DNA of 64,000 nt from Escherichia coli (GTDB lineage Bacteria; Pseudomonadota; Gammaproteobacteria; Enterobacterales; Enterobacteriaceae): NCBI RefSeq assembly GCF_003334305.1, contig NZ_QOWS01000008.1; one strand, given 5' to 3'. This document shows positions 16,893 through 60,410 of this stretch, piece by piece (position 1 is the stretch's first letter; each line of letters starts with the position of its first letter). Position numbers and translations under genes: made by a program. Under the pieces are notes generated by a model. That model was not told where the DNA came from. It saw only the letters and a list, made by a program, of their open reading frames with translations, and did not search any database.

Positions 16893-17010
16893 GATTTCGT
16901 CCTTTTTAAGGTGGTTATTTACACCTTAGCGCAAAGCGGACGTGGTTCCTACTGGAGTGCGCATAACGAACACAAGCACTCCCGTGGATAAATTGAGAAC
17001 GAAAGATCAA

Positions 17011-17103
17011 AAAAAAAGCCAGCACCCGGCTGGCTAAGTAATACTGGAAGCAATGTGAGCAATGTCGTGCTTTCAGGTTCTCCGCGAGGGTCTTCCTGAT
17101 CGC
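17011..17103 (-). ncRNA. ryhB: RyhB iron-starvation small RNA
   Basis: Reverse complement of 17103..17011 reads GCGATCAGGAAGACCCTCGCGGAGAACCTGAAAGCACGACATTGCTCACATTGCTTCCAGTATTACTTAGCCAGCCGGGTGCTGGCTTTTTTTT, the RyhB sequence with its terminator hairpin and U-tract; located between yhhX and yhhY as in K-12. Confidence 0.93.
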
Positions 17104-32858: not shown

Positions 32859-33281
32859 AGTCAAAAATCCCCATTCGTGATGTTGTGTTGCTTTGTTTTT
32901 ATGTGTTAACAAATCAGACTGTTCTTTTTTTATACTGCACTGTTTTTGCCTGTCTGATTAAGGGTTTAGCGCAGTATTTTGTGATAATAGCGATTAAAAT
33001 CCCTATTTTTCAGTCGATTAAGAACAGATAATATTCTGAATTTATTGATAGATAAACAGAAAAAAGTGCCTTTGTCAGCATAAAATAACGGCACAAAGGG
33101 CGGAATAATTCACTACCATTCAGGGGATTATGCTGGGTATTTTTCATTCTCTAATGTTTTAACTTTGTAATTATTGCTGTTAAAAAATTAATCACCTGCC
33201 AAAAGAAATAAAAAAGAGAAAGCCTCCGATTAAATTATTTCGCTACACTGGTTCCACTTTTGTGATTTACACGGGTTACCC

Positions 33282-33665
33282 ATGAAGCTGACCATCATTC
33301 GATTAGAAAACTTTAGCGACCAGGACCGGATTGACCTGCAAAAGATCTGGCCGGAGTATTCCCCTTCCTCTTTACAGGTTGACGATAACCACCGTATCTA
33401 CGCCGCGCGTTTTAACGAGCGCCTGCTCGCTGCCGTACGGGTAACCTTAAGCGGCACCGAGGGAGCACTGGATTCCCTGCGTGTGCGGGAAGTCACCCGA
33501 CGTCGCGGTGTGGGGCAATATCTGCTGGAAGAGGTTTTGCGTAACAATCCTGGCGTTTCATGCTGGTGGATGGCGGATGCAGGCGTGGAAGATCGCGGTG
33601 TGATGACGGCGTTTATGCAGGCACTGGGATTTACGGCACAGCAGGGCGGCTGGGAGAAGCGTTAA
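33282..33665 (+). CDS. panZ: PanD maturation factor (GNAT-like)
   Basis: 127-aa ORF MKLTIIRLENFSDQDRIDLQKIWPEYSPSSLQVDDNHRIYAARFNERLLAAVRV; position between livK and livJ. Confidence 0.9.
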   Translation: MKLTIIRLENFSDQDRIDLQKIWPEYSPSSLQVDDNHRIYAARFNERLLAAVRVTLSGTEGALDSLRVREVTRRRGVGQYLLEEVLRNNPGVSCWWMADAGVEDRGVMTAFMQALGFTAQQGGWEKR

Positions 33666-33706
33666 TCGTCAAGTTTGATTTCAAAAGTGATGACCAACGA
33701 GAAATT

Positions 33707-33806
<100 letters not shown>

Positions 33807-33864
33807 TGAAGCAACGTACTCGATATTAGCAATTTGGCGGCAACCCAAAGTTGCCGATTAATGA

Positions 33865-34968
33865 TTACTTCGCATCGGTTGCCGTGCCGTTGGCGTGCCA
33901 GTCAAATACGCCGAACTCAAAGCCTTTCAGATCGCCTTTCTCATCCCACGTCAGCGGCCCCATCACGGTATCAACCGAGTTCGCTTTCAGGTATTTGGCG
34001 ATTTCAGCCGGATCGTCAGACTGATTCAGGCCCGCCTGCAAAGATTGCAGCGCGGCGTAGGTGGTCCAGACGAACGCGCCACTTGGATCCTGTTTTTTCG
34101 CTTTGATGGCGTCAACAATGGGTTTGTTCGCCGGAACCTGATCGTAGTTCTTCGGCTTGGTCACCAGCAGCCCTTCCGCTGATTCGCCCGCAATGTTAGA
34201 CAGCGAAACGTTAGCCACACCTTCCGGCCCCATAAACTGAGTTTTCAGCCCTGCCGCGCGTGCCTGACGCAGGATTTGCCCCATTTCCGGGTGATAACCG
34301 CCGTAGTAAACGAAGTCGATATTCTCTTTTTTCAGACGCGCCACCAGCGTTGAGAAATCTTTTTCCCCGGCGGTGATACCATCAAAGAACACCACGTTAG
34401 CATTGCCTTTCTTCAGGCCGTCCTGCACCGCTCGCGCCAGACCTTCGCCGTATTGCTGTTTGTCGTGAACGATAGCAATACGCTGCGGTTTCACTTTCTC
34501 AAGAATATATTTCGCCGCCGTCGGCCCCTGGTCGGAGTCCAGGCCGGTGGTGCGCAGGATCAGCTGATAGCCACGGGCGGTCAGCTCCGGCGCGGTTGCC
34601 GCTGGGGTGATCATTAAAATGCCTTCGTCTTCGTAGATGTCAGACGCAGGCTGCGTTGATGAAGAACAGAGGTGACCAATCACATATTTAATGCCGTCGT
34701 TAACGACTTTGTTCGCCACCGCAACCGCCTGTTTCGGGTCACAGGCATCGTCATATTTTACGATTTGCAGTTTGTTGCCTTTAATGCCGCCTTTAGCGTT
34801 GATATCCGCAACCGCCTGCTCTGCGCCGGTAAACTCCTGGTCACCGTACTGCGCAACCGGACCGGACATTGCGCCCACGACCGCGACTTTAATATCTTCT
34901 GCCAGAGCCATATTGCTGAATGCCAGCGCGATACATCCTGCCAGTAACGCTTTACCCTTTATATTCAT
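33865..34968 (-). CDS. livJ: Leu/Ile/Val periplasmic binding protein
   Basis: Recognised protein starts [23 protein letters not shown] at ATG 34968 (367 aa); ORF track extends to 35025. Confidence 0.94.
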
Positions 34969-35187
34969 CCTGAGAATCCCCATTCTTCTGGTTATTACGT
35001 GTGTTGTGGTGTTGTGATTCAGCACTTTATTTCGTTTTATGCATGACTACCCGTGCTTTAGCAGCATACTCTGCTAAAACATACCCCATTTTTATGATAT
35101 TGGAATAGCTATTTTGACAGTTTATTAACAATCTGCGTGGGGATTGACGTTTTGCCGGAGGGGGAATTGATTATTGTAGAGGCCCAA

Positions 35188-35218
35188 AAAACAAAAACCC
35201 CGGACTCTCATCCAGGGT
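35188..35218 (-). terminator. Rho-independent terminator of rpoH
   Basis: Minus strand: CCCUGGA-UGAGAG-UCCGGGG hairpin followed by UUUUUGUUUUUU, 20 nt after rpoH stop. Confidence 0.7.
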
Positions 35219-35238
35219 TCTCTGCTTAATAGCGGAAA

Positions 35239-36093
35239 TTACGCTTCAATAGCGGCGCGAAGTTTTTTCATCGCGTTCTTTTCCAGTTGGCGCACACGTT
35301 CAGCGGAAACACCGTAACGGTCAGCCAGTTCCTGCAACGTGGACTTGTTGTCTTCGTCCAGCCAGCGCGCACGGATGATGTCCTGGCTGCGTTCGTCCAG
35401 ACCCTGCATCGCGTCGGTCAGACGGTTTGCCGCCTGCTCTTCCCAGTTATCATCTTCGATGCCGTCGGCAAAGTTAGATGATTTATCCTGCAGATAGAGC
35501 ACCGGTGCCATCGGCTGGCTGTCGGAATCGTCGTCGGAAAACAGGTCAAAGGTCATGTCCTGTGCCGCCATACGTGATTCCATCTCACGTACGTCTTTGC
35601 TGGTTACGCCCAGTTCACGGGCCACCATTTCAACTTCATCCTGATTAAACCAGCCCAGACGCTGCTTGGTTTTACGCAGGTTGAAGAACAGTTTGCGCTG
35701 CGCTTTGGTAGTCGCAACTTTGACGATACGCCAGTTACGCAGAACGTATTCGTGGATCTCTGCTTTGATCCAGTGGACGGCGAAGGAGACCAGGCGCACA
35801 CCCACTTCCGGGTTGAAACGGCGCACTGCTTTCATCAGGCCGATGTTACCTTCCTGAATCAAATCCGCCTGTGGCAGGCCATAGCCCGCATAATTACGAG
35901 CAATATGAACAACAAACCGCAGGTGAGACAGGATCAGCGTTTTAGCTGCTTCCAGATCGCCATGGTAATGCAGCTTTTCAGCCAGCGCCCGCTCCTCGTC
36001 AGCCGACAACATCGGCCACGCGTTAGCTGCCCGGATGTAGGAATCCAGGTTGCCAACTGGGGCTAAAGCTAAACTTTGCATTTTGTCAGTCAT
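35239..36093 (-). CDS. rpoH: RNA polymerase sigma-32 (heat shock sigma factor)
   Basis: 284-aa [76 protein letters not shown]. Confidence 0.97.
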
Positions 36094-36186
36094 TCAAATC
36101 CTCTCAATCGATATCTTCTGGCGCTTCAGTGGTAGCAACAACTGTGCCAGAGCTTAAGAGCAACGAGGTTATCATTCACTGTTTTA

Positions 36187-36213
36187 TCAGACCGTGATTT
36201 TATCCACAAGTTC
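36187..36213 (-). promoter_or_regulatory. sigma-E-type promoter (rpoH P3) overlapping a DnaA box
   Basis: Minus strand reads GAACTTGTGGATAAAATCACGGTCTGA: -35 GAACTT, 16-nt spacer, -10 TCTGA; a perfect TTATCCACA DnaA box lies at 36200..36208 on the plus strand. Confidence 0.65.
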
Positions 36214-36336
36214 AATGCAAGCTTGTGAATAAATTACGCACAAAATGTGACATAGAGATGAAATACCGGGAAGAGACAACGGGATCTCTTTCCCTGCTAC
36301 GGAACCCATTGCAGGGAAGAGTATAACACGCTTTTA

Positions 36337-37395
36337 TTATTCAGGCGTAAAGTGGCGTAAATGTTGTACCGTGGCAAGCCACGCTGCCACCCAGCCAATC
36401 ATCGAGCATACCAGCAGCAATAGCAGGCATTCATCGAACGATAAGCCATTGATATCAAACTTCGTTCCGAAAACCTGTGCCACTTCTGCAACCGCCGATG
36501 ACAAACGCAGTACCAGAATTTCTGACAAAATTAATGACAGCAATGCGCCAGAAAATCCCAGCAGTGCGCCACCATACAGGAACGGGCGAAGGATGAAACC
36601 ATCCGTCGCACCAATCAGTTTCTGCACGTTGATGGAGTCACGGCGAGCAAAGATGCTCAGACGTACGCTGTTGCCGATGACGAGGAACACTGCCGCCACC
36701 ATCAACACGCCGATCATCGCCGAAACGCGCCCGACCAGCCCGGTCAACGCCGCCAGACGGGCAAACCAGCTGTCATCCATCCGCACTTCGTCAATGCCGT
36801 TAATCTGCGTGATACGATCACGCAGCGTATTGAGTGATTCCGTCCCCTGAAAATCGAGTTTCGGGATCACCACCGCCACTGCCGGAAGCGGGTTTTCTTC
36901 CAGCATATCCAGCGCACCACCAAAACCAGACCAGTTACGGAACTCGCCCAGTGCGTCTTCACGAGAAAGATAGTTCACTTTCTCCACGCCTTGCTCGGCC
37001 TGCAACTGTGCCACCACGCCCGCAGCGGCGTCATCGTCCAGCGTTTTTTGCAAGTAAACAGTGATTTGCGGTGACGGATAATACTGCGTCGCCGCCTGAT
37101 TAACGTTTTTGTACACCATATAACAGACGCTGGGCAGCGTCAGGGAGATGGCGATAACCATCACCGTTAAAAACGTGGCGAACGGTTTGCTTTTCAGATC
37201 CTGCAATGCGCCGTGGAAGGCATAGCGCACCTGTTCGTTGAAAACGTTGGTTTTACGATTTACCGGTTTTGGCGAGGATTTCGCGCGTTTCGGGGCGTTA
37301 CGACCGCCGTCGCCAGAGCCGCCGACCGATTTACGGAAGCGATCAAGACGCCCGCCAAACTGCCGAATATGATTGATTGCATCGCGCTTATTCAT
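36337..37395 (-). CDS. ftsX: cell division ABC-transporter-like permease
   Basis: Recognised protein starts [26 protein letters not shown] at ATG 37395 (352 aa); overlaps ftsE 3' end by 8 nt. Confidence 0.94.
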
Positions 37396-38056
37396 GGCCC
37401 ACGCCTCCATGCAAGTGACCATCGCTCAGGGTGAGCATGCGATAGGAACGCCGTGAAATCAGGTTGATGTCGTGCGTTGCCATCAATACGGTTACCCCAA
37501 CGCGGTTAAACTCTTCAAACAGACGTAGAATCCCTTCCGACAACGCGTCGTCCAGGTTACCGGTCGGTTCGTCCGCCAGCAGTACCGCGGGCTTATTCAC
37601 CACCGCGCGGGCAATGCCAACACGCTGTTGTTCACCGCCGGAAAGCTGAATAGGGAAGTTCTTCGCTTTGTCCAGTAGCCCGACTTTATCCAGTGCCGCC
37701 GACACCCGGCGACGAATATCGTCACCGCTGGCACCAGCGATAATCAGCGGGATCGCCACGTTATCGTAGACAGTACGGTCCATCAGTAGATGGTGATCCT
37801 GGAAAATCATGCCAATCTGGCGGCGCAGAAACGGAACTTCACGGTTTTTCAGACGCGTGATGTCATGGCCGCTAAACCAGATTTTCCCGGCGCTGGGCCG
37901 CTCAATCCCACAGATCAGCTTCAGGAGGGTACTTTTCCCTGCGCCGGAATGACCGGTCAGAAACGCCATCTCACCCGGCTGCATATGGAACGTAACGCCC
38001 TGCAGCGCCTGTCTCCCACCGAGATAAGCCTTGCTGACATGTTCAAAGCGAATCAT
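37388..38056 (-). CDS. ftsE: cell division ATP-binding protein
   Basis: 222-aa [50 protein letters not shown]. Confidence 0.96.
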
Positions 38057-38058
38057 TG

Positions 38059-39552
38059 TTAATCCTCTCGGGCAAAAAGTGCCTCTATAAAGTCGTCCGC
38101 CTTAAACGGACGCAAATCCTCAATACGTTCGCCGACACCAATGTAGCGGATAGGGATACCAAACTGGTCAGCCACCGAGAAAATTACCCCGCCTTTCGCC
38201 GTGCCGTCCAGTTTCGTTAGCGTGATGCCGGTTAAGCCAACAGCTTCGTGGAACAGTTTGGCCTGGCTTACCGCGTTCTGCCCGGTGCTGGCATCAATAG
38301 TCAGCATAACTTCATGCGGCGCTTCAACGTCGAGTTTCTTCATCACGCGGACGATTTTCTTCAACTCTTCCATCAGATGCGATTTGTTCTGCAGACGTCC
38401 GGCGGTATCGGCAATCAGGACGTCGATATTACGCGCTTTAGCTGCCTGAATGGCGTCGAAGATAACAGAGGCGGAATCCGCACCAGTATGCTGGGCAATC
38501 ACCGGAATATTGTTGCGCTGACCCCAGACCTGAAGCTGTTCAACCGCTGCTGCACGGAAAGTATCGCCCGCCGCCAGCATCACCGATTTACCCTGCTGCT
38601 CAAACTGACGCGCCAGCTTACCAATCGTCGTGGTTTTACCCACACCGTTGACGCCCACCATCAGGATCACGAACGGCGTTTTACCTTCAACATTCAGCGG
38701 CTCATCGACTTTCGCCAGAATCTCGCCCATCTCTTCTTTCAGCAGGCCATAGAGCGCCTCGGCATCACGAAGCTGCTTGCGGGATGCGCCTTCCGTCAGA
38801 TTGGTGATAATTTTACGTGTGGTTTCCACGCCCACATCGGCGATCAACAGCTGTTCTTCCAGCTCCTCAAACAGATCATCGTCGATTTTTTTACCGCGGA
38901 ACAGGCTGATAAATCCGGAACCGAGATTTTCTTTGGTTTTTAACAGGCTGCGTTTCAGGCGCGCGAAGAAACCTTCTTTGGTCGGTTTTTCCTGCTCCTG
39001 AGCGATTTCTTCCACCGGCTGCTCTTCTACCGGAGGAACCACCATCACCGCCTCTTCTGCCGCTTCGGCAGCCAGCGCCTGTGCTTCCAGCTCTTCGTCG
39101 GTGATTTCTTCTTTAGCCGCTTCTTCTTCCGCCGCTTCGACAATCTCTACGGTTTCCGCTTCAGCCTGCCACTCTTCTGGCGAAACCTCTTCGGCGTTGA
39201 CGTCTTCCGGCAACGGCAGCTCTTCACGCTCGATAGCCACTGGCTCCGGCGTTTCTTCTACGACCGGTTCCGGCTGTGCAACGACTTCCGCTTCAGGCTG
39301 CGCTTTTTCACTTTCAGCAACCTGTTCAGTGACTTCCACAACGTCGGCAGCAAAAGTTTCCGCCTCGGCTTCAGTATGCGCCTGCGGCTGCTCTTCGACG
39401 GCTTGTTCAGAAGCCTTCACAGGCTCTTGCGCCTGAACGATTTCTTCTACAACCGGTTGTTCATTCTGAACTTCTGTCTCTTTTTCCGGGGTCTGCTCTT
39501 TTTGACCAAAGCCCAGCCAGGAAAAAAAGCCACGTTTTTTTTCTTTCGCCAT
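38059..39552 (-). CDS. ftsY: signal recognition particle receptor
   Basis: 497-aa ORF; acidic repetitive N-terminal A domain followed by SRP-GTPase NG domain (GVNGVGKTT, DTAGR). Confidence 0.96.
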   Translation of the reverse strand: MAKEKKRGFFSWLGFGQKEQTPEKETEVQNEQPVVEEIVQAQEPVKASEQAVEEQPQAHTEAEAETFAADVVEVTEQVAESEKAQPEAEVVAQPEPVVEETPEPVAIEREELPLPEDVNAEEVSPEEWQAEAETVEIVEAAEEEAAKEEITDEELEAQALAAEAAEEAVMVVPPVEEQPVEEIAQEQEKPTKEGFFARLKRSLLKTKENLGSGFISLFRGKKIDDDLFEELEEQLLIADVGVETTRKIITNLTEGASRKQLRDAEALYGLLKEEMGEILAKVDEPLNVEGKTPFVILMVGVNGVGKTTTIGKLARQFEQQGKSVMLAAGDTFRAAAVEQLQVWGQRNNIPVIAQHTGADSASVIFDAIQAAKARNIDVLIADTAGRLQNKSHLMEELKKIVRVMKKLDVEAPHEVMLTIDASTGQNAVSQAKLFHEAVGLTGITLTKLDGTAKGGVIFSVADQFGIPIRYIGVGERIEDLRPFKADDFIEALFARED

Positions 39553-41059: not shown

Positions 41060-41686
41060 ATGCTTTGGTCGTTTATCGCTGTCTGTCTTTCCGCATGGCT
41101 ATCTGTGGATGCATCGTATCGTGGGCCAACCTGGCAACGCTGGGTGTTTAAACCGTTAACCCTTCTTCTCCTGCTGTTACTGGCCTGGCAAGCGCCGATG
41201 TTCGACGCCATTAGCTATCTGGTGCTGGCAGGGCTGTGCGCCTCACTGCTGGGCGATGCGCTAACCCTGTTGCCACGTCAACGTCTGATGTACGCCATCG
41301 GCGCGTTTTTCCTCTCGCACCTGCTGTACACCATCTATTTCGCCAGTCAGATGACGCTCTCTTTCTTCTGGCCTCTGCCACTGGTGTTGCTGGTTCTGGG
41401 TGCGCTGCTACTGGCGATTATCTGGACGCGGCTGGAAGAGTACCGTTGGCCTATCTGCACGTTTATCGGCATGACGCTGGTGATGGTGTGGCTGGCAGGT
41501 GAACTGTGGTTCTTCCGTCCGACCGCTCCGGCGCTCTCTGCGTTTGTTGGCGCTTCGTTGCTGTTTATCAGTAACTTTGTCTGGCTGGGGAGCCACTATC
41601 GCCGACGCTTCCGTGCGGATAACGCGATTGCTGCGGCCTGCTACTTTGCCGGTCACTTCCTCATCGTCCGCTCGCTGTATCTCTGA
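41060..41686 (+). CDS. yhhN: YhhN-family (TMEM86-like) integral membrane protein
   Basis: 208-aa polytopic membrane [47 protein letters not shown]. Confidence 0.9.
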
Positions 41687-41692
41687 TAAAAC

Positions 41693-41724
41693 TTGACTCT
41701 GGAGTCGACTCCAGAGTGTATCCT
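41693..41724 (+). promoter_or_regulatory. zntA promoter with ZntR (MerR-type) operator
   Basis: TTGACT -35 overlapping a perfect 22-bp palindrome ACTCTGGAGTCGACTCCAGAGT, with a TATCCT -10-like hexamer 20 bp downstream of the -35; long-spacer MerR-family architecture 35 nt upstream of zntA. Confidence 0.75.
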
Positions 41725-41759
41725 TCGGTTAATGAGAAAAAACTTAACCGGAGGATGCC

Positions 41760-43958
41760 ATGTCGACTCCTGACAATCACGGCAAGAAAGCCCCTCAATT
41801 TGCTGCGTTCAAACCGCTAACTGCGGTACAGAACGCCAACGACTGTTGCTGCGACGGCGCATGTTCCAGCTCGCCAACGCTCTCTGAAAACGTCTCCGGC
41901 ACCCGCTATAGCTGGAAAGTCAGCGGCATGGACTGCGCCGCCTGTGCGCGCAAGGTAGAAAATGCTGTGCGCCAGCTTGCAGGCGTGAATCAGGTGCAGG
42001 TGTTGTTCGCCACCGAAAAACTGGTGGTCGATGCCGACAATGACATTCGTGCACAAGTTGAATCTGCGGTGCAAAAAGCAGGCTATTCCCTGCGCGATGA
42101 ACAGGCCGCCGAAGAACCGCAAGCATCACGCCTGAAAGAGAATCTGTCGCTGATTACGCTAATCGTGATGATGGCAATCAGCTGGGGTCTGGAGCAGTTC
42201 AATCATCCGTTCGGGCAACTGGCGTTTATCGCGACCACGCTGGTTGGGCTGTACCCGATTGCTCGTCAGGCATTACGGCTGATCAAATCAGGCAGTTACT
42301 TCGCCATTGAAACGTTAATGAGCGTAGCCGCTATTGGTGCGCTGTTTATTGGCGCAACGGCTGAAGCTGCGATGGTGTTGCTGCTGTTTTTGATTGGTGA
42401 ACGACTGGAAGGTTGGGCCGCCAGCCGCGCGCGTCAGGGCGTCAGCGCGTTAATGGCGCTGAAACCAGAAAACGCCACGCGCCTGCGTAACGGTGAGCGT
42501 GAAGAGGTGGCAATTAACAGCCTGCGCCCTGGCGATGTGATTGAAGTTGCGGCGGGTGGGCGTTTGCCTGCCGACGGTAAACTGCTCTCACCCTTTGCCA
42601 GTTTTGATGAAAGCGCCCTGACCGGCGAATCCATTCCGGTGGAGCGTGCGACGGGCGATAAAGTTCCTGCAGGCGCCACCAGCGTAGACCGTCTGGTGAC
42701 GTTGGAAGTATTGTCCGAACCGGGAGCCAGCGCCATTGACCGGATTCTGAAACTGATCGAAGAAGCCGAAGAGCGTCGCGCTCCCATTGAGCGGTTTATC
42801 GACCGTTTCAGCCGCATTTATACGCCAGCAATTATGGCCGTCGCCCTGCTGGTAACGCTGGTGCCGCCGCTGCTGTTTGCCGCCAGCTGGCAAGAGTGGA
42901 TTTATAAAGGCCTGACGCTGCTGCTGATTGGCTGCCCGTGTGCGTTAGTTATCTCCACGCCCGCGGCGATTACCTCCGGGCTGGCAGCAGCGGCACGTCG
43001 TGGGGCGTTGATTAAAGGCGGAGCGGCGCTGGAACAGCTGGGTCGTGTTACTCAGGTGGCGTTTGATAAAACCGGTACGCTGACCGTCGGTAAACCGCGC
43101 GTTACCGCGATTCATCCGGCAACGGGTATTAGTGAATCTGAACTGCTGACACTGGCGGCGGCGGTCGAGCAAGGCGCGACGCATCCACTGGCGCAGGCCA
43201 TCGTACGCGAAGCACAGGTTGCTGAACTCGCCATTCCCACCGCCGAATCACAGCGGGCGCTGGTCGGGTCTGGCATTGAAGCGCAGGTTAACGGTGAGCG
43301 CGTATTGATTTGCGCTGCCGGGAAACATCCCGCTGATGCATTTGCTGGTTTGATTAATGAACTGGAAAGCGCCGGGCAAACGGTTGTGCTGGTAGTACGT
43401 AATGATGACGTGCTGGGTATCATTGCATTGCAGGATACCCTGCGCGCCGACGCAGCAACTGCCATCAGTGAACTGAACGCGCTGGGGGTTAAAGGAGTGA
43501 TCCTCACCGGCGATAATCCACGCGCAGCGGCGGCAATTGCCGGGGAGCTGGGGCTGGAGTTTAAAGCGGGCCTATTGCCGGAAGATAAAGTCAAAGCGGT
43601 GACCAAGCTGAATCAACATGCGCCCCTGGCGATGGTCGGTGATGGTATTAACGACGCGCCAGCGATGAAAGCTGCCGCCATTGGGATTGCAATGGGCAGT
43701 GGCACAGACGTGGCGCTGGAAACCGCCGACGCAGCATTAACCCATAACCACCTGCGCGGCCTGGTGCAAATGATTGAACTGGCACGCGCCACTCACGCCA
43801 ATATCCGCCAGAACATCACTATTGCGCTGGGGCTGAAAGGGATCTTCCTCGTCACCACGCTGCTAGGGATGACCGGACTATGGCTGGCGGTGCTGGCAGA
43901 TACCGGTGCGACCGTGCTGGTAACAGCGAATGCGTTAAGATTGTTGCGCAGGAGATAA
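41760..43958 (+). CDS. zntA: Zn/Cd/Pb-exporting P1B-type ATPase
   Basis: 732-aa ORF; N-terminal GMDCAACARKVE metal-binding motif, membrane CPC motif, DKTGT phosphorylation site, GDGINDAPA. Confidence 0.96.
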   Translation: MSTPDNHGKKAPQFAAFKPLTAVQNANDCCCDGACSSSPTLSENVSGTRYSWKVSGMDCAACARKVENAVRQLAGVNQVQVLFATEKLVVDADNDIRAQVESAVQKAGYSLRDEQAAEEPQASRLKENLSLITLIVMMAISWGLEQFNHPFGQLAFIATTLVGLYPIARQALRLIKSGSYFAIETLMSVAAIGALFIGATAEAAMVLLLFLIGERLEGWAASRARQGVSALMALKPENATRLRNGEREEVAINSLRPGDVIEVAAGGRLPADGKLLSPFASFDESALTGESIPVERATGDKVPAGATSVDRLVTLEVLSEPGASAIDRILKLIEEAEERRAPIERFIDRFSRIYTPAIMAVALLVTLVPPLLFAASWQEWIYKGLTLLLIGCPCALVISTPAAITSGLAAAARRGALIKGGAALEQLGRVTQVAFDKTGTLTVGKPRVTAIHPATGISESELLTLAAAVEQGATHPLAQAIVREAQVAELAIPTAESQRALVGSGIEAQVNGERVLICAAGKHPADAFAGLINELESAGQTVVLVVRNDDVLGIIALQDTLRADAATAISELNALGVKGVILTGDNPRAAAAIAGELGLEFKAGLLPEDKVKAVTKLNQHAPLAMVGDGINDAPAMKAAAIGIAMGSGTDVALETADAALTHNHLRGLVQMIELARATHANIRQNITIALGLKGIFLVTTLLGMTGLWLAVLADTGATVLVTANALRLLRRR

Positions 43959-54417: not shown

Positions 54418-54777
54418 TTATAAATGATTCAAACGCTCATTCAGTGTTTCAATAATATAGGTATTAACAGAGACTTGTTGCTGCGCAGCCGCATTATTAA
54501 GGCGTTCACTCAGCGATTCTGGATAGCGTAACGTAAAGGTCTTAATCTTTTCTGTACGCGCATACGGCTCAATACCCGCAGCTTTACAATCCTCAAGATA
54601 CTCTCGCAGGGAAAGTTCCCCTTCTTTTTGCAGCCCCTGAATGCTGTCAGAGACAAAATCACAATAACCTGACAAGCCCAGGAATTTGCCACGAAATGCA
54701 TTCAGTTCTGGCACGTAAGTGATAACTGCAGGTTGCCCGGCAATCTCCATAGAGTTTGGCGTCTTCAGTTTGATCAT
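54418..54777 (-). CDS. HicB-family antitoxin candidate with C-terminal ribbon-helix-helix DNA-binding tail
   Basis: 119-aa ORF; RHH-like C-terminus TFTLRYPESLSERLNNAAAQQQVSVNTYIIETLNERL; 4-nt ATGA overlap with upstream HicA-like ORF. Confidence 0.6.
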   Translation of the reverse strand: MIKLKTPNSMEIAGQPAVITYVPELNAFRGKFLGLSGYCDFVSDSIQGLQKEGELSLREYLEDCKAAGIEPYARTEKIKTFTLRYPESLSERLNNAAAQQQVSVNTYIIETLNERLNHL

Positions 54778-55049
54778 GGTTTTACCCCTATACTTAGTAA
54801 CCAGTCACGCACGCTTTCTACAGCGCCTTTATCGGTATCTGGCGACGGATGAGGCCGATGGAAACACGCAACGCTCATATTTAGTATGAACTTACAACGC
54901 GAACCTCTTCCTTCCTTAATTTCTCCGCCTAATGCTTTAACCAGTGACTCTATATCAGACCACTTGATCCCTTGAGGAACAGGAGTTTTAAATATTTGAT
55001 CCAATGTATTTTTTTGTTTCTTCCGTAAAGCCTGTACCTTGGTTCTCAT
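54774..55049 (-). CDS. HicA-family (YcfA-like) mRNA-interferase toxin candidate
   Basis: 91-aa basic ORF MRTKVQALRKKQKNTLDQIFKTPVPQGIKWSDIESLVKALGGEIKEGRGSRCKFILNMSVACFHRPHPSPDTDKGAVESVRDWLLSIGVKP with the conserved His-Pro core; toxin-first order typical of hicAB. Confidence 0.6.
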   Translation of the reverse strand: MRTKVQALRKKQKNTLDQIFKTPVPQGIKWSDIESLVKALGGEIKEGRGSRCKFILNMSVACFHRPHPSPDTDKGAVESVRDWLLSIGVKP

Positions 55050-55050
55050 G

Positions 55051-55102
55051 GCATGTCCTTATGACTTCACTTTATGACATCAATAGTATGACATCACAGT
55101 AT
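55051..55102 (-). promoter_or_regulatory. operator-like repeat cluster upstream of the hicA-like gene
   Basis: Direct repeats TATGACATCA (55062..55072 and 55077..55086) nested within inverted repeat ATGACTTCA ... TGAAGTCAA, directly 5' of the toxin start. Confidence 0.45.
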
Positions 55103-55121
55103 GAAGTCAAGTTTCCCTTCC

Positions 55122-56249
55122 TTACGCCATTGTCCCAATCGTCTTCCTGAATCGCAGCAGCGCGATGGTGAAAAACGCGCCGCCAATTGCCATCAGCGTC
55201 AGGAACTGCGGCCAGACGATTTCGAATCCGGCACCCCGGTAGAGAATGGCCTGCGCGAGGCTAACAAAGTGTGTCGTCGGCATGGTCAGCATAATGTCCT
55301 GCACCATCTGCGGCATACTTTCGCGCGGCGTGGATCCACCGGAAAGCATTTGCAGCGGCAGCAGCACCAGAATCACCAGCAGCCCCAGTTGCGGCATTGA
55401 ACGCGCTATCGTCCCCATAAAAATGCCGATTGACGTGGTGGCAAACAGACTGAGCGCCACGCCCAGCATAAACAGCGGGATCGAGCCTTCAATCGGTACA
55501 CCCAGCACGCCTTTCACCATCAGCACCAGTGATAATCCCGACACCACCAGCACCACCAGCCCCATCGACCAGACCTTTGCCATCATGATCTCAAACGGCG
55601 TTATCGGCATCACCAACAAGTGTTCCACCGTGCCGTGTTCACGCTCGCGGATCAGCGCCGATCCGGTCAATACAATCGCCAGCATGGTAATGTTGTTGAT
55701 GATTGCCATCACCCCGCCAAACCACGCGGGATCAAGGTTCGGGTTAAAGCGCATCCGGGTTTCCAGCGATACCAACGGTTCGCTGTTATCACGGTAGCGC
55801 GCGACAAAGCTGTTCACTTCACCGTTGATAATATTCTGGATATACCCATTGCCGGTAAATGCCTGGCTCATGCGCGTGGCATCGACGTTCACCTGAATAT
55901 CCGGCTGGCGTCCGGCGAGGACATCACGCTGAAAATTAGGCGGAATATTTATCGCAAAGGTATAACGCCCGGCGTCCAGTCCGGCATCCATCTCATCGGC
56001 GGTGATCATCTCCGGTGGCAAAAACCACGGGCGATAGAAGCTGTTAACGATCCGGTTCGATAACTGCGATTGATCCATATCGGCAATGGCGATCGGCGCG
56101 AGGTTCAACGATCCTGGCGTAACGGTCGCTGACGAATACACCGACACCGTAAACGAGAAGACAATCAGCGTCAGCATCGCTTTATCACCGAGCAGACTGC
56201 GCAACTCTTTGATACCCAGATTAAAAATATTGCGTAAATGGCGCATCAT
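55122..56249 (-). CDS. yhhJ: ABC-2 family transporter permease
   Basis: Membrane [34 protein letters not shown]; start taken at ATG 56249 overlapping rbbA stop (ATGA); the adjacent ATG 56246 is an alternative; ORF track extends to 56330. Confidence 0.9.
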
Positions 56250-58981
56250 CCCTCCTGTTTTTTCAGCAGCAGGATACTTAAGCCCATCACCAGCGGGATG
56301 GCTATCAGCAACGGGATAAAAAGTTGCCACAAATCAGTCAGATCCAGCGCCTTCGAGAACGTCCCGCGGGCGATAGTCAGAAAATGACTGGTCGGGTAAA
56401 CCTCGCCGATCCAACGTCCAGGCCCTTCCAGCGAAGCTACCGGATCGATCATCCCGGAAAACTGTGTCGCCGGGATCAACGTGATAATCGCCGTTCCGAA
56501 AATGGCGGCAATCTGGCTTTTCATAAAGGTGGAGATCAGCAGCCCCATTCCGGTGGCAATGATGATATACAGCAGCGCCGCCAGGGTGAGCGTCAGGAAA
56601 CTGCCTTTATGCGGTACGCCAAACACAAACACCGACAGGCCGCAGAGCAGGAAAAAGTTCAGCATCCCCAGCGCGATGTATGGCAACTGTTTACCAAGCA
56701 AAAATTCACTACGCGTGGTGGGGGTCACGTAAAGGTTGATAATCGACCCAAGCTCTTTTTCCCGCACCACGCTAAGGGCGCTTAGCATTGACGGGATCAT
56801 CATCAGCAGAAGCGGGATCACCGCCGGAACAATCGCTGGCAGGCTTTTTACGTCCGGGTTATAGCGATAGCGCGTCTCAATATTCATCAGCCCGCTTTGG
56901 CTGGCGGGTGTGGATTGTCGGCTCGCCACATCCTGTAGCCAGCTCTGGTGCATGGCCTGCACGTAACCTTTTACCGTTTCGGCACGGCTCGGCATCGCTC
57001 CGTCGATCCAGACGCCGAGTTCCACAGGCGTACCACGCGCGATATCGCGCCCGAAATTGGGAGGGATCTCAATTGCCACCGTTATATCGCCCGCACGCAT
57101 CCGACGATCAAGCTCGTCATAACTGGTGAGCGGCGGCTGTTCGATAAAGTAACGGGAACCGGAGAGATTGAGCGTCCACGCCTGGCTACTGACGGTCTGG
57201 TCGCGGTCGAGCACCGCAAAGCGCAGGTTTTCCACATCCATACTGATGCCGTAACCCATTATCAGCATCAGGATCACTGTTCCCATCAGCGCCAGCGTCG
57301 AACGTACCGGATCGCGTCGCAGTTCCAGTGCTTCGCGGCGGCTGTAGCTAAACAGACGGCGCAGGCTAAATCCCTGACGCGGCGCGTGGGTGGTGTCGTG
57401 TATCACGGGCGGCGCTTCGGCTTCGTTGCTCTGTCCTGCCGCTTCCTGCAAATAGGCGATAAATGCCTCTTCCAGACTGGCGGCTCCGCGTTTCTCAACC
57501 AGTTCCTGCGGTGTACCGCTGGCGAGCACTTTTCCGGCGTGCATCAGTGAGATGCGGTCGCAACGTTCCGCTTCGTTCATAAAGTGGGTGGAGATAAAAA
57601 TGGTTACTTTGTCCTGGCGCGAGAGATCGACCATCAACTGCCAGAACATATCCCTCGCCACCGGATCGACGCCAGAAGTAGGTTCATCGAGGATTAACAT
57701 CTCCGGGCGATGAATCACCGCCACCGCCAGCGAAAGCCGCTGGCGAATGCCGAGCGGCAATGACTCCGGCAGAACATCTTCAACGTCGTTGAGCTTAAAA
57801 CGCTCGCTCATTTCAGCCACTCGCGCGGGAATTTCCGCTTCCGGGATGTGAAACAAACGGGCATGTAACTCAAGGTTTTGCCGCACGGTGAGTTCGTTAT
57901 AGAGCGAAAACGCCTGCGACATATAGCCCACCCGACGGCGGGTATCGATATCTTTTGGATCAACCGGTTGCCCAAACAGCCACGCCTCACCTTCGCTGGC
58001 GGGCAGCAGTCCGGTGAGCATTTTCATGGTGGTGGATTTACCGCAGCCGTTCGATCCAAGAAAACCAAAAATCTCCCCGCGTGGAATGCGGAAATTGACG
58101 TGATCAACGGCAACGAAGGAACCAAAACGCATGGTCAGATCGCGCGCTTCGATGGCAATCTCTGCATTTTCAGGTTGATACGGTGGGATCACTACCGCCT
58201 GATGCGCCTGGCGTTGCGCTTGCGGTAACAGATTTATAAACGCCTCTTCCAGCGTGGCGCTTTGCGTTTGCTGCCGCAGCTCTTCGGCGCTGCCAGTTGC
58301 CAGCACTTCTCCGGCATTCATCGCTACCAGCCAGTCGAAGCGTTCGGCCTCTTCCATATAGGCGGTGGCGACCAGCACGCTCATATTGCTCTGCCGCTGG
58401 CGAATACTGTCGATCAGATCCCAGAACTGGGCGCGGGAGAGCGGGTCAACCCCCGTTGTTGGCTCATCAAGGATCAACAGTTCCGGGTCGTGGATTAACG
58501 CGCAGCACAGCCCCAGTTTTTGCTTCATCCCGCCGGAGAGTTTACCTGCCGGACGATCGCGAAACGGTGCTAACCCGGTGCTGGTCAGCAGCTCATTAAT
58601 TCGGACTTCCCGCTCCGCTTTATCGTGACCGAACAAGCGAGCGAAAAAATCGACATTTTCATACACCGATAAGGTGTGGTAGAGATTTTTGCCCAGCCCC
58701 TGCGGCATCCAGGCGATGCGCGGGCAGACGTCGCGGCGATGCTTCGGGTCGCGCATATCGCCGCCCAGCACCATCACATTGCCCTGTTCAATGACGCGGG
58801 CACCGGAAATCAACGACAACAAGCTCGACTTCCCGACGCCGTCCGGGCCAATCAGCCCGACCATGCAACGGGCCGGAATATCGAGTGTGATATTGTTCAG
58901 CGCAACGGTTTTTCCATAATGCTGGCTCACGCCCGCCAGTTGCGCGACAGGCGGGACGGGAACCAGTTCCAGATGCGTCAT
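56246..58981 (-). CDS. rbbA: ribosome-associated ATPase; fused tandem ABC ATPase plus ABC-2 permease
   Basis: 911-aa ORF with two Walker A motifs ([18 protein letters not shown]) and a C-terminal multi-TM domain. Confidence 0.94.
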
Positions 58982-60045
58982 TGCGGCAACCTCACCACGA
59001 GGTCGTCAGGCCACGGAAGTTCTTCATTCACCCGCACCCACGCTACGCCCGGTAAACCGGTTTTGACATATTCCAGATGCTGCTGGAGTAATTCCGGTGG
59101 GATACGCGCTTTGACGCGGAACATCAGTTTCAGCCGTTCATCGCTGGTTTCGACGGTTTTTGGCGTGAACTGGGCGACACTGGCGACAAAACTGATGGTT
59201 GCAGGAATACGCAGATCTGGCGCGGCATCGAGGATCAGCCGGGCTTCACCGCCCAGTTTCAGCGTGCCCGCCTGTTCGGTTGGCAGGAAGAAAGTCATAT
59301 AGACGTCGCTGAGATCGACCATATTCAGCACCCGACCGCCTGCCGCCAGCACTTCGCCTGGCTCGGCAACCCGATACTGCACGCGTCCGTCACGCGGGGC
59401 TTTCAGTTCGCTGTCATCGATATCTGCGGCAATGCGCCGTTCAGTGGCTTGTGCGGCTTCGACGCGAGTTTGCGCCTGAATGATATTGGTGCGTGCCGCT
59501 TCTATAGCGGCTTTAGAAGCCGAAACCTGAGCTTTTGCCGATTCCAGCGCAGCTCGGGCGCTCTCAGCGGCGGCGCGGTCGTCATCCAACTGTTGCGCAG
59601 AAATAGCCCCACGATGGGCGAGCGAGCGGGAACGGGTATGACGTTTGGCTACGGAGTCCAGTTCAGCTTGCCGTTGATTAACCAGCGACTGAGCGGCGCG
59701 AGTTTCACTTTGGCGTTGCTCCAGCAAAGCCTGCGCGGCAGCAACGGCGCTTTGTGCTTCTTTGATTTGCGCGATGGCTTCCAGTCGCTGTTCCTGCAAC
59801 ACGCGAGTATCCATCTTCGCCAGCACTTCACCTTCTCGAACAAACTGGCCTTCTTTCACCAGAATGGTGTCAATACGCCCGGCAATTTTGCTGGCGATAT
59901 CCACTTCCGTCGCTTCAATGCGCCCATTGCTGACAGCAAAGCCTTCCGGCACACCTGCCGGGCGCAACAGCCACCACGCCACGATAGCCGCCACCGCCAG
60001 TAACCCGACAACCCACCACGCCAGATGGCGCTTACTCTTATCCAT
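58978..60045 (-). CDS. yhiI: HlyD-family membrane fusion protein
   Basis: 355-aa ORF with N-terminal TM anchor and long Ala/Gln-rich coiled-coil segments; 4-nt overlap with rbbA. Confidence 0.92.
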
Positions 60046-60410
60046 AATCGACCCGCCATAATCCCTGTAAGCAAACGACGCGTGTTACAACTGCCGCCGA
60101 ACGACGTTCAGCGGATTCTTCCATCCGGGATAAGAAGGAAACGGCAAATACGACCAGCGCGCAGAGCATTGAGCGCCAACGGGGAAGGCTTAGTGAAAAC
60201 GGGTAGTAATGTTGTCATCATCAGCATTCCTGGCCGTAAATGAAACACGCATACTCATAAGTGTGATCTATAAAACTGGCTGACAAAACGGTATCCATCC
60301 TGTTGGATAGCGTTTCACGCCTGTTCAGTTGCAGGAACAGAGCATTCCTTTTTACGTTTTATCAACAGTCTCAACCAGATAGTAACATTAATATTCATGT
60401 TGTCTATGGT

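Follow-up and report, generated by a model that had tools for sequence, protein, structure and literature searches.

The 64,000-nucleotide stretch of Escherichia coli DNA analysed here (the window) contains, between the genes yhhN and zntA, a perfect 22-bp palindrome. Is this palindrome the operator of a metal-responsive promoter, an RNA hairpin that ends or stabilises a neighbouring transcript, or a symmetry without regulatory role? The initial annotation had favoured the first reading, placing the palindrome in a promoter of zntA controlled by ZntR (PzntA).

Anatomy and identity of PzntA

The palindrome ACTCTGGAGTCGACTCCAGAGT is made of two arms of 11 nt with no central spacer (ACTCTGGAGTC|GACTCCAGAGT) and occupies positions 41696-41717, with no strand assigned; its length, perfect symmetry and location in the zntA promoter are as the initial annotation had described them. 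It is the sole copy in the 64-kb window, in which no near-match is found at up to three mismatches. From 5' to 3', the order of elements is the TGA of yhhN, TAAAAC, TTGACT, CTGGAGTCGACTCCAGAGTG, TATCCT, TCGGTTAATGAGAAAAAACTTAACCGGAGGATGCC and the ATG of zntA. The -35 hexamer is TTGACT (41693-41698, plus strand) and the -10 hexamer TATCCT (41719-41724, plus strand). Direct counting of the bases that separate them (41699-41718, plus strand) gives the 20-bp spacer previously claimed for these two hexamers, 3 bp above the 17-bp optimum. The palindrome had also been placed between the hexamers: this holds for its position in the promoter but not strictly, as it shares 3 nt (ACT) with the -35 and ends 1 nt short of the -10, and strict containment is impossible because 22 bp exceed a 20-bp spacer. 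The operator begins 64 nt ahead of the zntA start codon.

MerR-family promoters are marked by an over-long spacer (19-20 bp, against 17 +/- 1) and by a dyad-symmetric operator within the -35/-10 spacer; PzntA has 20 bp and such an operator, in partial overlap with the -35. A standard promoter scan of positions 41300-42100, with spacers of 16-18 bp, found no promoter in that interval, as expected at PzntA from the over-long spacer. Judging by where the -10 lies, transcription probably starts at the A at 41731 (plus strand), 7 nt past the -10 and 29 nt ahead of the zntA ATG. This start reportedly accords with the published primer extension and with the EcoCyc zntAp entry. The SMRT-Cappable-seq supplements hold no entry for zntA or yhhN start sites, and the Cappable-seq supplements none at K-12 positions 3606421-3606423 or 3604444-3604446.

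The genes on both sides are readily identified. A 701-bp query (41400-42100) has a match in each of the 5426 complete E. coli genomes, with 100% identity in strain AMSHJX01, and by this match the window is E. coli chromosome. The yhhN coding sequence (lysoplasmalogenase/YhhN family; 41060-41686, plus strand) was taken from the list of open reading frames and from the RefSeq annotation of the strain matching over the 701 bases; it is co-oriented with zntA and its stop codon lies 6 nt before the -35 hexamer. The open reading frame at 41760-43958 (plus strand; 732 aa) scores 1447 bits over positions 1-732, i.e. full length, against the NCBIfam model of ZntA, NF033775 (cut-off 1240 bits). It is thus zntA, encoding the P-type ATPase that exports Zn(II), Cd(II) and Pb(II), in agreement with the RefSeq annotation. 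In AMSHJX01 the annotated order is rpoH, ftsYEX, rsmD, yhhL, yhhM, yhhN, zntA, tusA, yhhQ, dcrB ... nikABCDER, and the yhhN-zntA-tusA synteny is the same as in K-12. Between nikR and yhhJ the same strain carries a GntR/PTS/FGGY-kinase/aldolase cluster and hicAB; the RyhB sRNA is found at 17010-17074, on the minus strand of the window.

The regulator gene zntR is absent from the 64-kb window. In AMSHJX01 it is found some 155 kb away, flanked by yhdN and arfA, and its product exceeds the cut-offs of the two ZntR equivalog models (247 bits for NF007069 and 206 bits for TIGR02043); the same protein scores weakly on the CueR, MerR and CadR models and reaches 104 bits on the CadR-PbrR model. We infer that the source genome of the window also carries zntR.

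PzntA and ZntR were characterised in strain K-12. The initial annotation had proposed an alignment to characterised zntA promoters as a check; window positions 41678-41768 prove identical, base for base, to positions 3606369-3606459 of K-12 MG1655 (NC_000913.3) over promoter and leader. The identity extends over at least 91 nt and includes the -35, the palindrome, the spacer, the -10, the leader and the start of zntA. No difference appears in the promoter, while in the surrounding coding DNA E. coli strains differ from one another by a few percent. The K-12 PzntA/ZntR operator was reportedly the subject of work by Brocklehurst et al. and by Outten et al., both in 1999; summaries are given in PMC1526738 and PMC3431237. 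The operator has thus been known since 1999, and nothing in the operator itself is new.

The literature consulted describes the same element. Precisely ACTCTGGAGTCGACTCCAGAGT is given as the consensus bound by ZntR, in a spacer of 20 bp (PMC1526738). The laboratory that described ZntR names TTGACT as the -35 of PzntA, presents the ZntR promoter with its 20-bp spacer as an exception among the 19-bp promoters of the MerR family, and reports DNase I protection by ZntR over the -35, the spacer and the -10 (PMC3431237). A 20-bp spacer is also given in PMC7911910. On PzntA reporters, zinc turns weak repression into roughly 10-fold activation (PMC9189660). That paper states the spacer as 19 bp, a value that we did not adopt since direct counting and the three other papers all give 20.

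Conservation of the operator and of its spacing

How improbable is the palindrome taken by itself? The operator is the only palindrome with arms of at least 8 nt in the 64-kb window, and arms of at least 11 nt appeared in 6 of 200 random windows generated by a first-order Markov model, i.e. in about 3% per window. By itself it is therefore only moderately improbable. Chance is ruled out by its position within a -35/-10 pair directly upstream of zntA, and by its conservation.

Within the species, the 76-bp segment made of promoter and leader (41687-41762), a single-copy sequence, is found at 99% identity or more in 5365 of the 5426 E. coli genomes; the 701 bp around it (41400-42100, mostly coding) reach this level in just 257 of the same 5426. 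Conservation is thus stronger in the non-coding promoter than in the genes that flank it, and on this sequence comparison promoter and leader are under purifying selection.

Outside the species, the operators of Citrobacter werkmanii and of an Enterobacter sp. are identical to that of E. coli. Those of Photorhabdus (ACTCTGGAGTAGGCTCCAAAGT / TTGACTCTGGAGTAGGCTCCAAAGTgTAGAGT) and Vibrio bivalvicida (ACCTTGGAGTAGGCTCCAAGGT / TTGACCTTGGAGTAGGCTCCAAGGTtTACACT) carry changes in both half-sites. Both nevertheless retain the dyad, its overlap with the -35 and the 20-bp spacer, and both lie upstream of ZntA homologues. A search of genome contigs with ZntA gave at least 79 loci, and five of those listed are close gammaproteobacterial ones; the remaining loci among the matches listed are distant P-type ATPases, at which no ZntR-type site was found.

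A broader sample came from a DNA-pattern scan of metagenomes with TTGACYYTGGAGTNNNCTCCARRGT, which returned at least 120 stretches, reduced to 108 distinct sites. These were picked solely on the -35 and the operator, the -10 lying outside the pattern, so that the position of a -10 motif constitutes an independent test of the architecture. Among the matches listed, TANNNT stands 1 nt past the palindrome, i.e. at a 20-bp spacer, in 76% of the 108 distinct sites, vs 0-3% of them at each of 14 other offsets; the TATCCT of PzntA occupies exactly the enriched offset. The half-sites have two variable positions, and these show symmetry in 65 of the 108 sites, against about 32 expected under independence (our estimate from the marginal counts), which agrees with recognition by a symmetric dimer. 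Downstream of many of these sites are genes for P-type ATPases or genes whose start encodes a MerR-type N-terminus, as read from the sequences. The survey makes the 20-bp spacer a fixed property of the ZntR-type class of operators across many lineages, a modest addition to what was known.

Function of the palindrome

Taking these results together with the literature, we consider the site to be PzntA of E. coli, the promoter through which ZntR controls zntA, the gene of the zinc/cadmium/lead efflux ATPase, with a probability of about 0.95. The distortion-activated MerR-family architecture under ZntR control put forward by the initial annotation is borne out by the K-12 identity, the ZntA match and the published site, and nothing in our data contradicts it. 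For ZntR binding, metal dependence and DNA distortion we rely on the literature on the identical K-12 sequence, from which the following scheme would apply. A dimer of ZntR, a MerR-family protein whose gene is located elsewhere on the chromosome, would bind the 22-bp palindrome that takes up the spacer from TTGACT to TATCCT. With 20 bp between them, the hexamers would be too distant and out of phase for sigma-70 RNA polymerase; a spacer of 20 rather than 17 bp implies a promoter that is nearly silent, and apo-ZntR would repress it slightly. ZntR bound to Zn(II), Cd(II) or Pb(II) would kink and underwind the centre of the operator, and the distortion would realign the -35 and the -10, allowing the open complex to form and zntA to be transcribed, probably from about 41731.

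Could the palindrome serve chiefly as an RNA hairpin, ending or stabilising the transcript of yhhN or an antisense RNA, its position in a promoter being secondary? With yhhN ending 6 nt before the -35, a separate terminator would not fit in between; folded as RNA or DNA, the palindrome is predicted to reach -14.9 kcal/mol (z = -3.6), and a consensus terminator scan reports it on the minus strand, with CAAGTTTTAT after it. On the plus strand, however, which is the sense of yhhN, the hairpin is followed by GUGUAUCCUUCGG, which contains no U-tract, and the scan made no call; no minus-strand gene runs toward the palindrome. For lack of a plus-strand U-tract or terminator call we rejected termination as its main function. 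Moreover, the same operator with the same -35/-10 geometry lies upstream of unrelated genes in many lineages, whatever precedes it, and is found at the Vibrio and L188 loci, where yhhN is absent; protein binding to the operator has been shown (PMC1526738, PMC3431237). We therefore hold a mainly structural function to be very improbable, although the palindrome may have a secondary structural role alongside that of ZntR operator.

Even less probable, to the point of being negligible, is that the palindrome serves another MerR-family regulator such as CueR or SoxR, or that it plays no part in regulation and is a product of chance or a palindrome resembling a restriction site (GTCGAC core). E. 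coli does have several MerR paralogues, ZntR itself receives weak scores from the models of its relatives, and a perfect palindrome of this length turns up somewhere in about 3% of random 64-kb windows. But the published CueR site, ACCTTCCC-N5-TGGAAGGT in a 19-bp spacer, is different, the exact sequence found here is the published ZntR site (PMC1526738 for both), and strong conservation together with a fixed offset of the -10 is incompatible with chance.

As a ZntR operator, the site can be set beside other promoters of the family. PmerT/MerR of Tn501/Tn21 shares with it a dyad operator in an over-long spacer and a TTGACT -35 (PMC3431237), as well as activation through metal-induced distortion of the DNA, a mechanism reviewed in PMC9909328. 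It differs by a 19-bp spacer, by a 7-4-7 dyad of another sequence and by its response to Hg(II); in addition merR is adjacent to PmerT and divergent from it, whereas zntR is unlinked to PzntA. PcopA/CueR of E. coli is likewise a MerR-family promoter of a P-type efflux ATPase with the regulator bound in the spacer, but this spacer is of 19 bp, the operator is the CueR site given above (PMC1526738) and the response is to monovalent Cu, Ag and Au. The CadR/PbrR promoters of Pseudomonas and Cupriavidus are controlled by related divalent-metal MerR regulators, and many of the metagenomic operators of the form ACYYTGGAGT...ACTCCARRGT precede ATPase or merR-like genes. The characterised CadR/PbrR promoters nevertheless have 19-bp spacers, in contrast to the 20 bp of the ZntR-type sites recovered here.

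PzntA/ZntR is a textbook case of how a metal sensor of the MerR family distorts DNA allosterically, and is widely used in biosensors of zinc, cadmium and lead. Here the value of the site is that of a positive control, a characterised regulatory element with the correct architecture having been recovered from raw sequence.

A second inverted repeat between the -10 and the Shine-Dalgarno

The only lead with possibly new content concerns the segment just downstream, where a conserved hairpin joins the -10 to the ribosome-binding site, and the missing terminator between yhhN and zntA. This second inverted repeat (41718-41758, plus strand) has a 15-bp stem and an 11-nt loop. Its left arm (41718-41732) includes the -10, and its right arm (41744-41758) includes the Shine-Dalgarno GGAGG (41750-41754). 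The predicted RNA fold of 41718-41758 reaches -21.1 kcal/mol (z = -5.8); by contrast, a transcript starting at 41731, without the left arm, shows no unusual predicted structure (z = 0.1).

The stem is kept in 16 distinct enterobacterial leaders, in which 94.6% of the cells are paired vs 26-53% in slid controls. Compensatory changes appear at two stem pairs (U-A to G-C and G-C to A-U), in a covariation test whose statistical power is low since these 16 taxa are close. Three more distant loci of Enterobacterales (L125, L165 and L098) also form predicted hairpins in this position; their sequences are quite different, and their z values lie between -2.5 and -6.1. The predicted hairpin is conserved in Enterobacterales; none is found at that place in the Vibrio-type loci or at L188. 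A Rfam scan of 41500-41950, with E-values up to 10, gave no family, only miRNA-like matches that we rejected as chance, and the hairpin is apparently undescribed so far.

The occurrence of the hairpin can be compared with that of yhhN. At every orthologous locus of Enterobacterales examined YhhN is directly upstream, and at all loci with a strong hairpin yhhN is on the same strand and ends 6-32 nt before the -35. In Photorhabdus yhhN lies 189 nt upstream and the hairpin is weak (z = -2.0). There is no terminator between yhhN and zntA, and in a microarray study of Y. pestis yhhN-zntA appears in the list of co-expressed units. For the region of the Shine-Dalgarno and ATG, the predicted probability of being unpaired is 0.12-0.40 in read-through RNAs, about twofold lower than the 0.37-0.61 in promoter-started RNAs; the rows of L098 and L165, for which the Shine-Dalgarno had been picked within the -10 region, were disregarded.

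These predictions would be consistent with a translational gate on zntA that depends on the start site. Transcripts from the ZntR-activated start, which lies inside the left arm, would be without this arm and would leave the ribosome-binding site free. Read-through transcripts from yhhN would contain both arms, so that the Shine-Dalgarno would be buried and the RNA left untranslated, then perhaps terminated by Rho inside zntA. The hairpin may in this way silence the translation of read-through transcripts, as we infer from the predicted folds. That it is a functional gate of this kind we regard as a tentative and rather unlikely proposal. If it were true, ZntA synthesis would be strictly zinc-dependent despite transcription from upstream.

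A further repetition was seen at the start of the coding sequence. There, in the first codons of zntA, the sequence GTCGACTCCTGA (41762-41773) agrees in 11 of its 12 nucleotides with GTCGACTCCAGA (41704-41715), the right half of the operator. In several orthologues the copy at the start of zntA matches the operator half better than the 11/12 of E. coli.

Promoter spacing and the yhhN-zntA junction

In the zntA promoter the -35 hexamer TTGACT (41693-41698) and the -10 hexamer TATCCT (41719-41724) are separated by 20 bp, as the initial annotation had stated and as was counted directly. The spacer is given as 19 bp in PMC9189660, but the count on the identical sequence is 20 bp, with which PMC1526738, PMC3431237 and PMC7911910 concur. 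The promoter lies against the preceding gene: only 6 nt separate the yhhN stop codon from the -35 hexamer (41684-41698), a distance of 6–32 nt in other Enterobacterales loci. The two genes are co-oriented and, given this proximity, there is therefore no separate terminator between them. In Yersinia pestis, a microarray study gives yhhN-zntA as a single co-expressed unit (PMC2231364).

A hairpin spanning the -10 region and the Shine-Dalgarno

In a second inverted repeat (41718-41758, + strand) the -10 region, GTATCCTTCGGTTAA, is complementary to the Shine-Dalgarno region of zntA, TTAACCGGAGGATGC. The predicted RNA fold of this repeat has an energy of -21.1 kcal/mol (z = -5.8). Sixteen enterobacterial leaders retain the stem, two of its pairs showing compensatory change, and in more distant Enterobacterales hairpins of other sequence stand in its place; the Rfam search returned no family matching this hairpin. 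An RNA beginning at about 41731, the probable start site as placed from the -10 position, would not contain the left arm. The hairpin may keep read-through RNA from yhhN translationally silent.

Operator half-sites and related operators

In its opening codons (ATG TCG ACT CCT GA) zntA repeats, at 41762-41773 and in direct orientation, the ZntR operator's right half-site (41704-41715), 11 of 12 positions being identical (GTCGACTCCAGA versus GTCGACTCCTGA). Several orthologues match the half-site more closely than the window does, e.g. the metagenome loci L144 (GTCGACTCCAGAG) and L113 (GTCGACACCAGAGT). This copy could reflect shared codon ancestry or could be an additional half-site.

Operators of the type TTGACYYTGGAGT-N3-CTCCARRGT followed by a -10 at 20-bp spacing are widespread among environmental bacteria; the scan of metagenome contigs with the operator pattern gave at least 120 stretches (L082-L201). 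Among the matches listed they often lie immediately 5' of genes encoding a MerR-type N-terminus (e.g. MTIGQLAK), in some cases with a leader that is nearly absent; others lie upstream of distant P-type ATPases.

Other features of the window

The only Rfam family to exceed its own gathering score in the window is RF00057, RyhB, a known iron-responsive small RNA (17010-17074, - strand, 83.1 bits).

Between nikR and yhhJ (about 54500-60800), the matching strain AMSHJX01 has a gene cluster (positions 33098-39388 of its annotated locus, L001) encoding a GntR-family regulator, galactitol-type PTS IIA/IIB/IIC, an FGGY kinase, an HPr-like protein, a class II aldolase and a hicAB toxin-antitoxin pair. 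It is probably a strain-variable island, since K-12 has an rhsB-associated region at this position.
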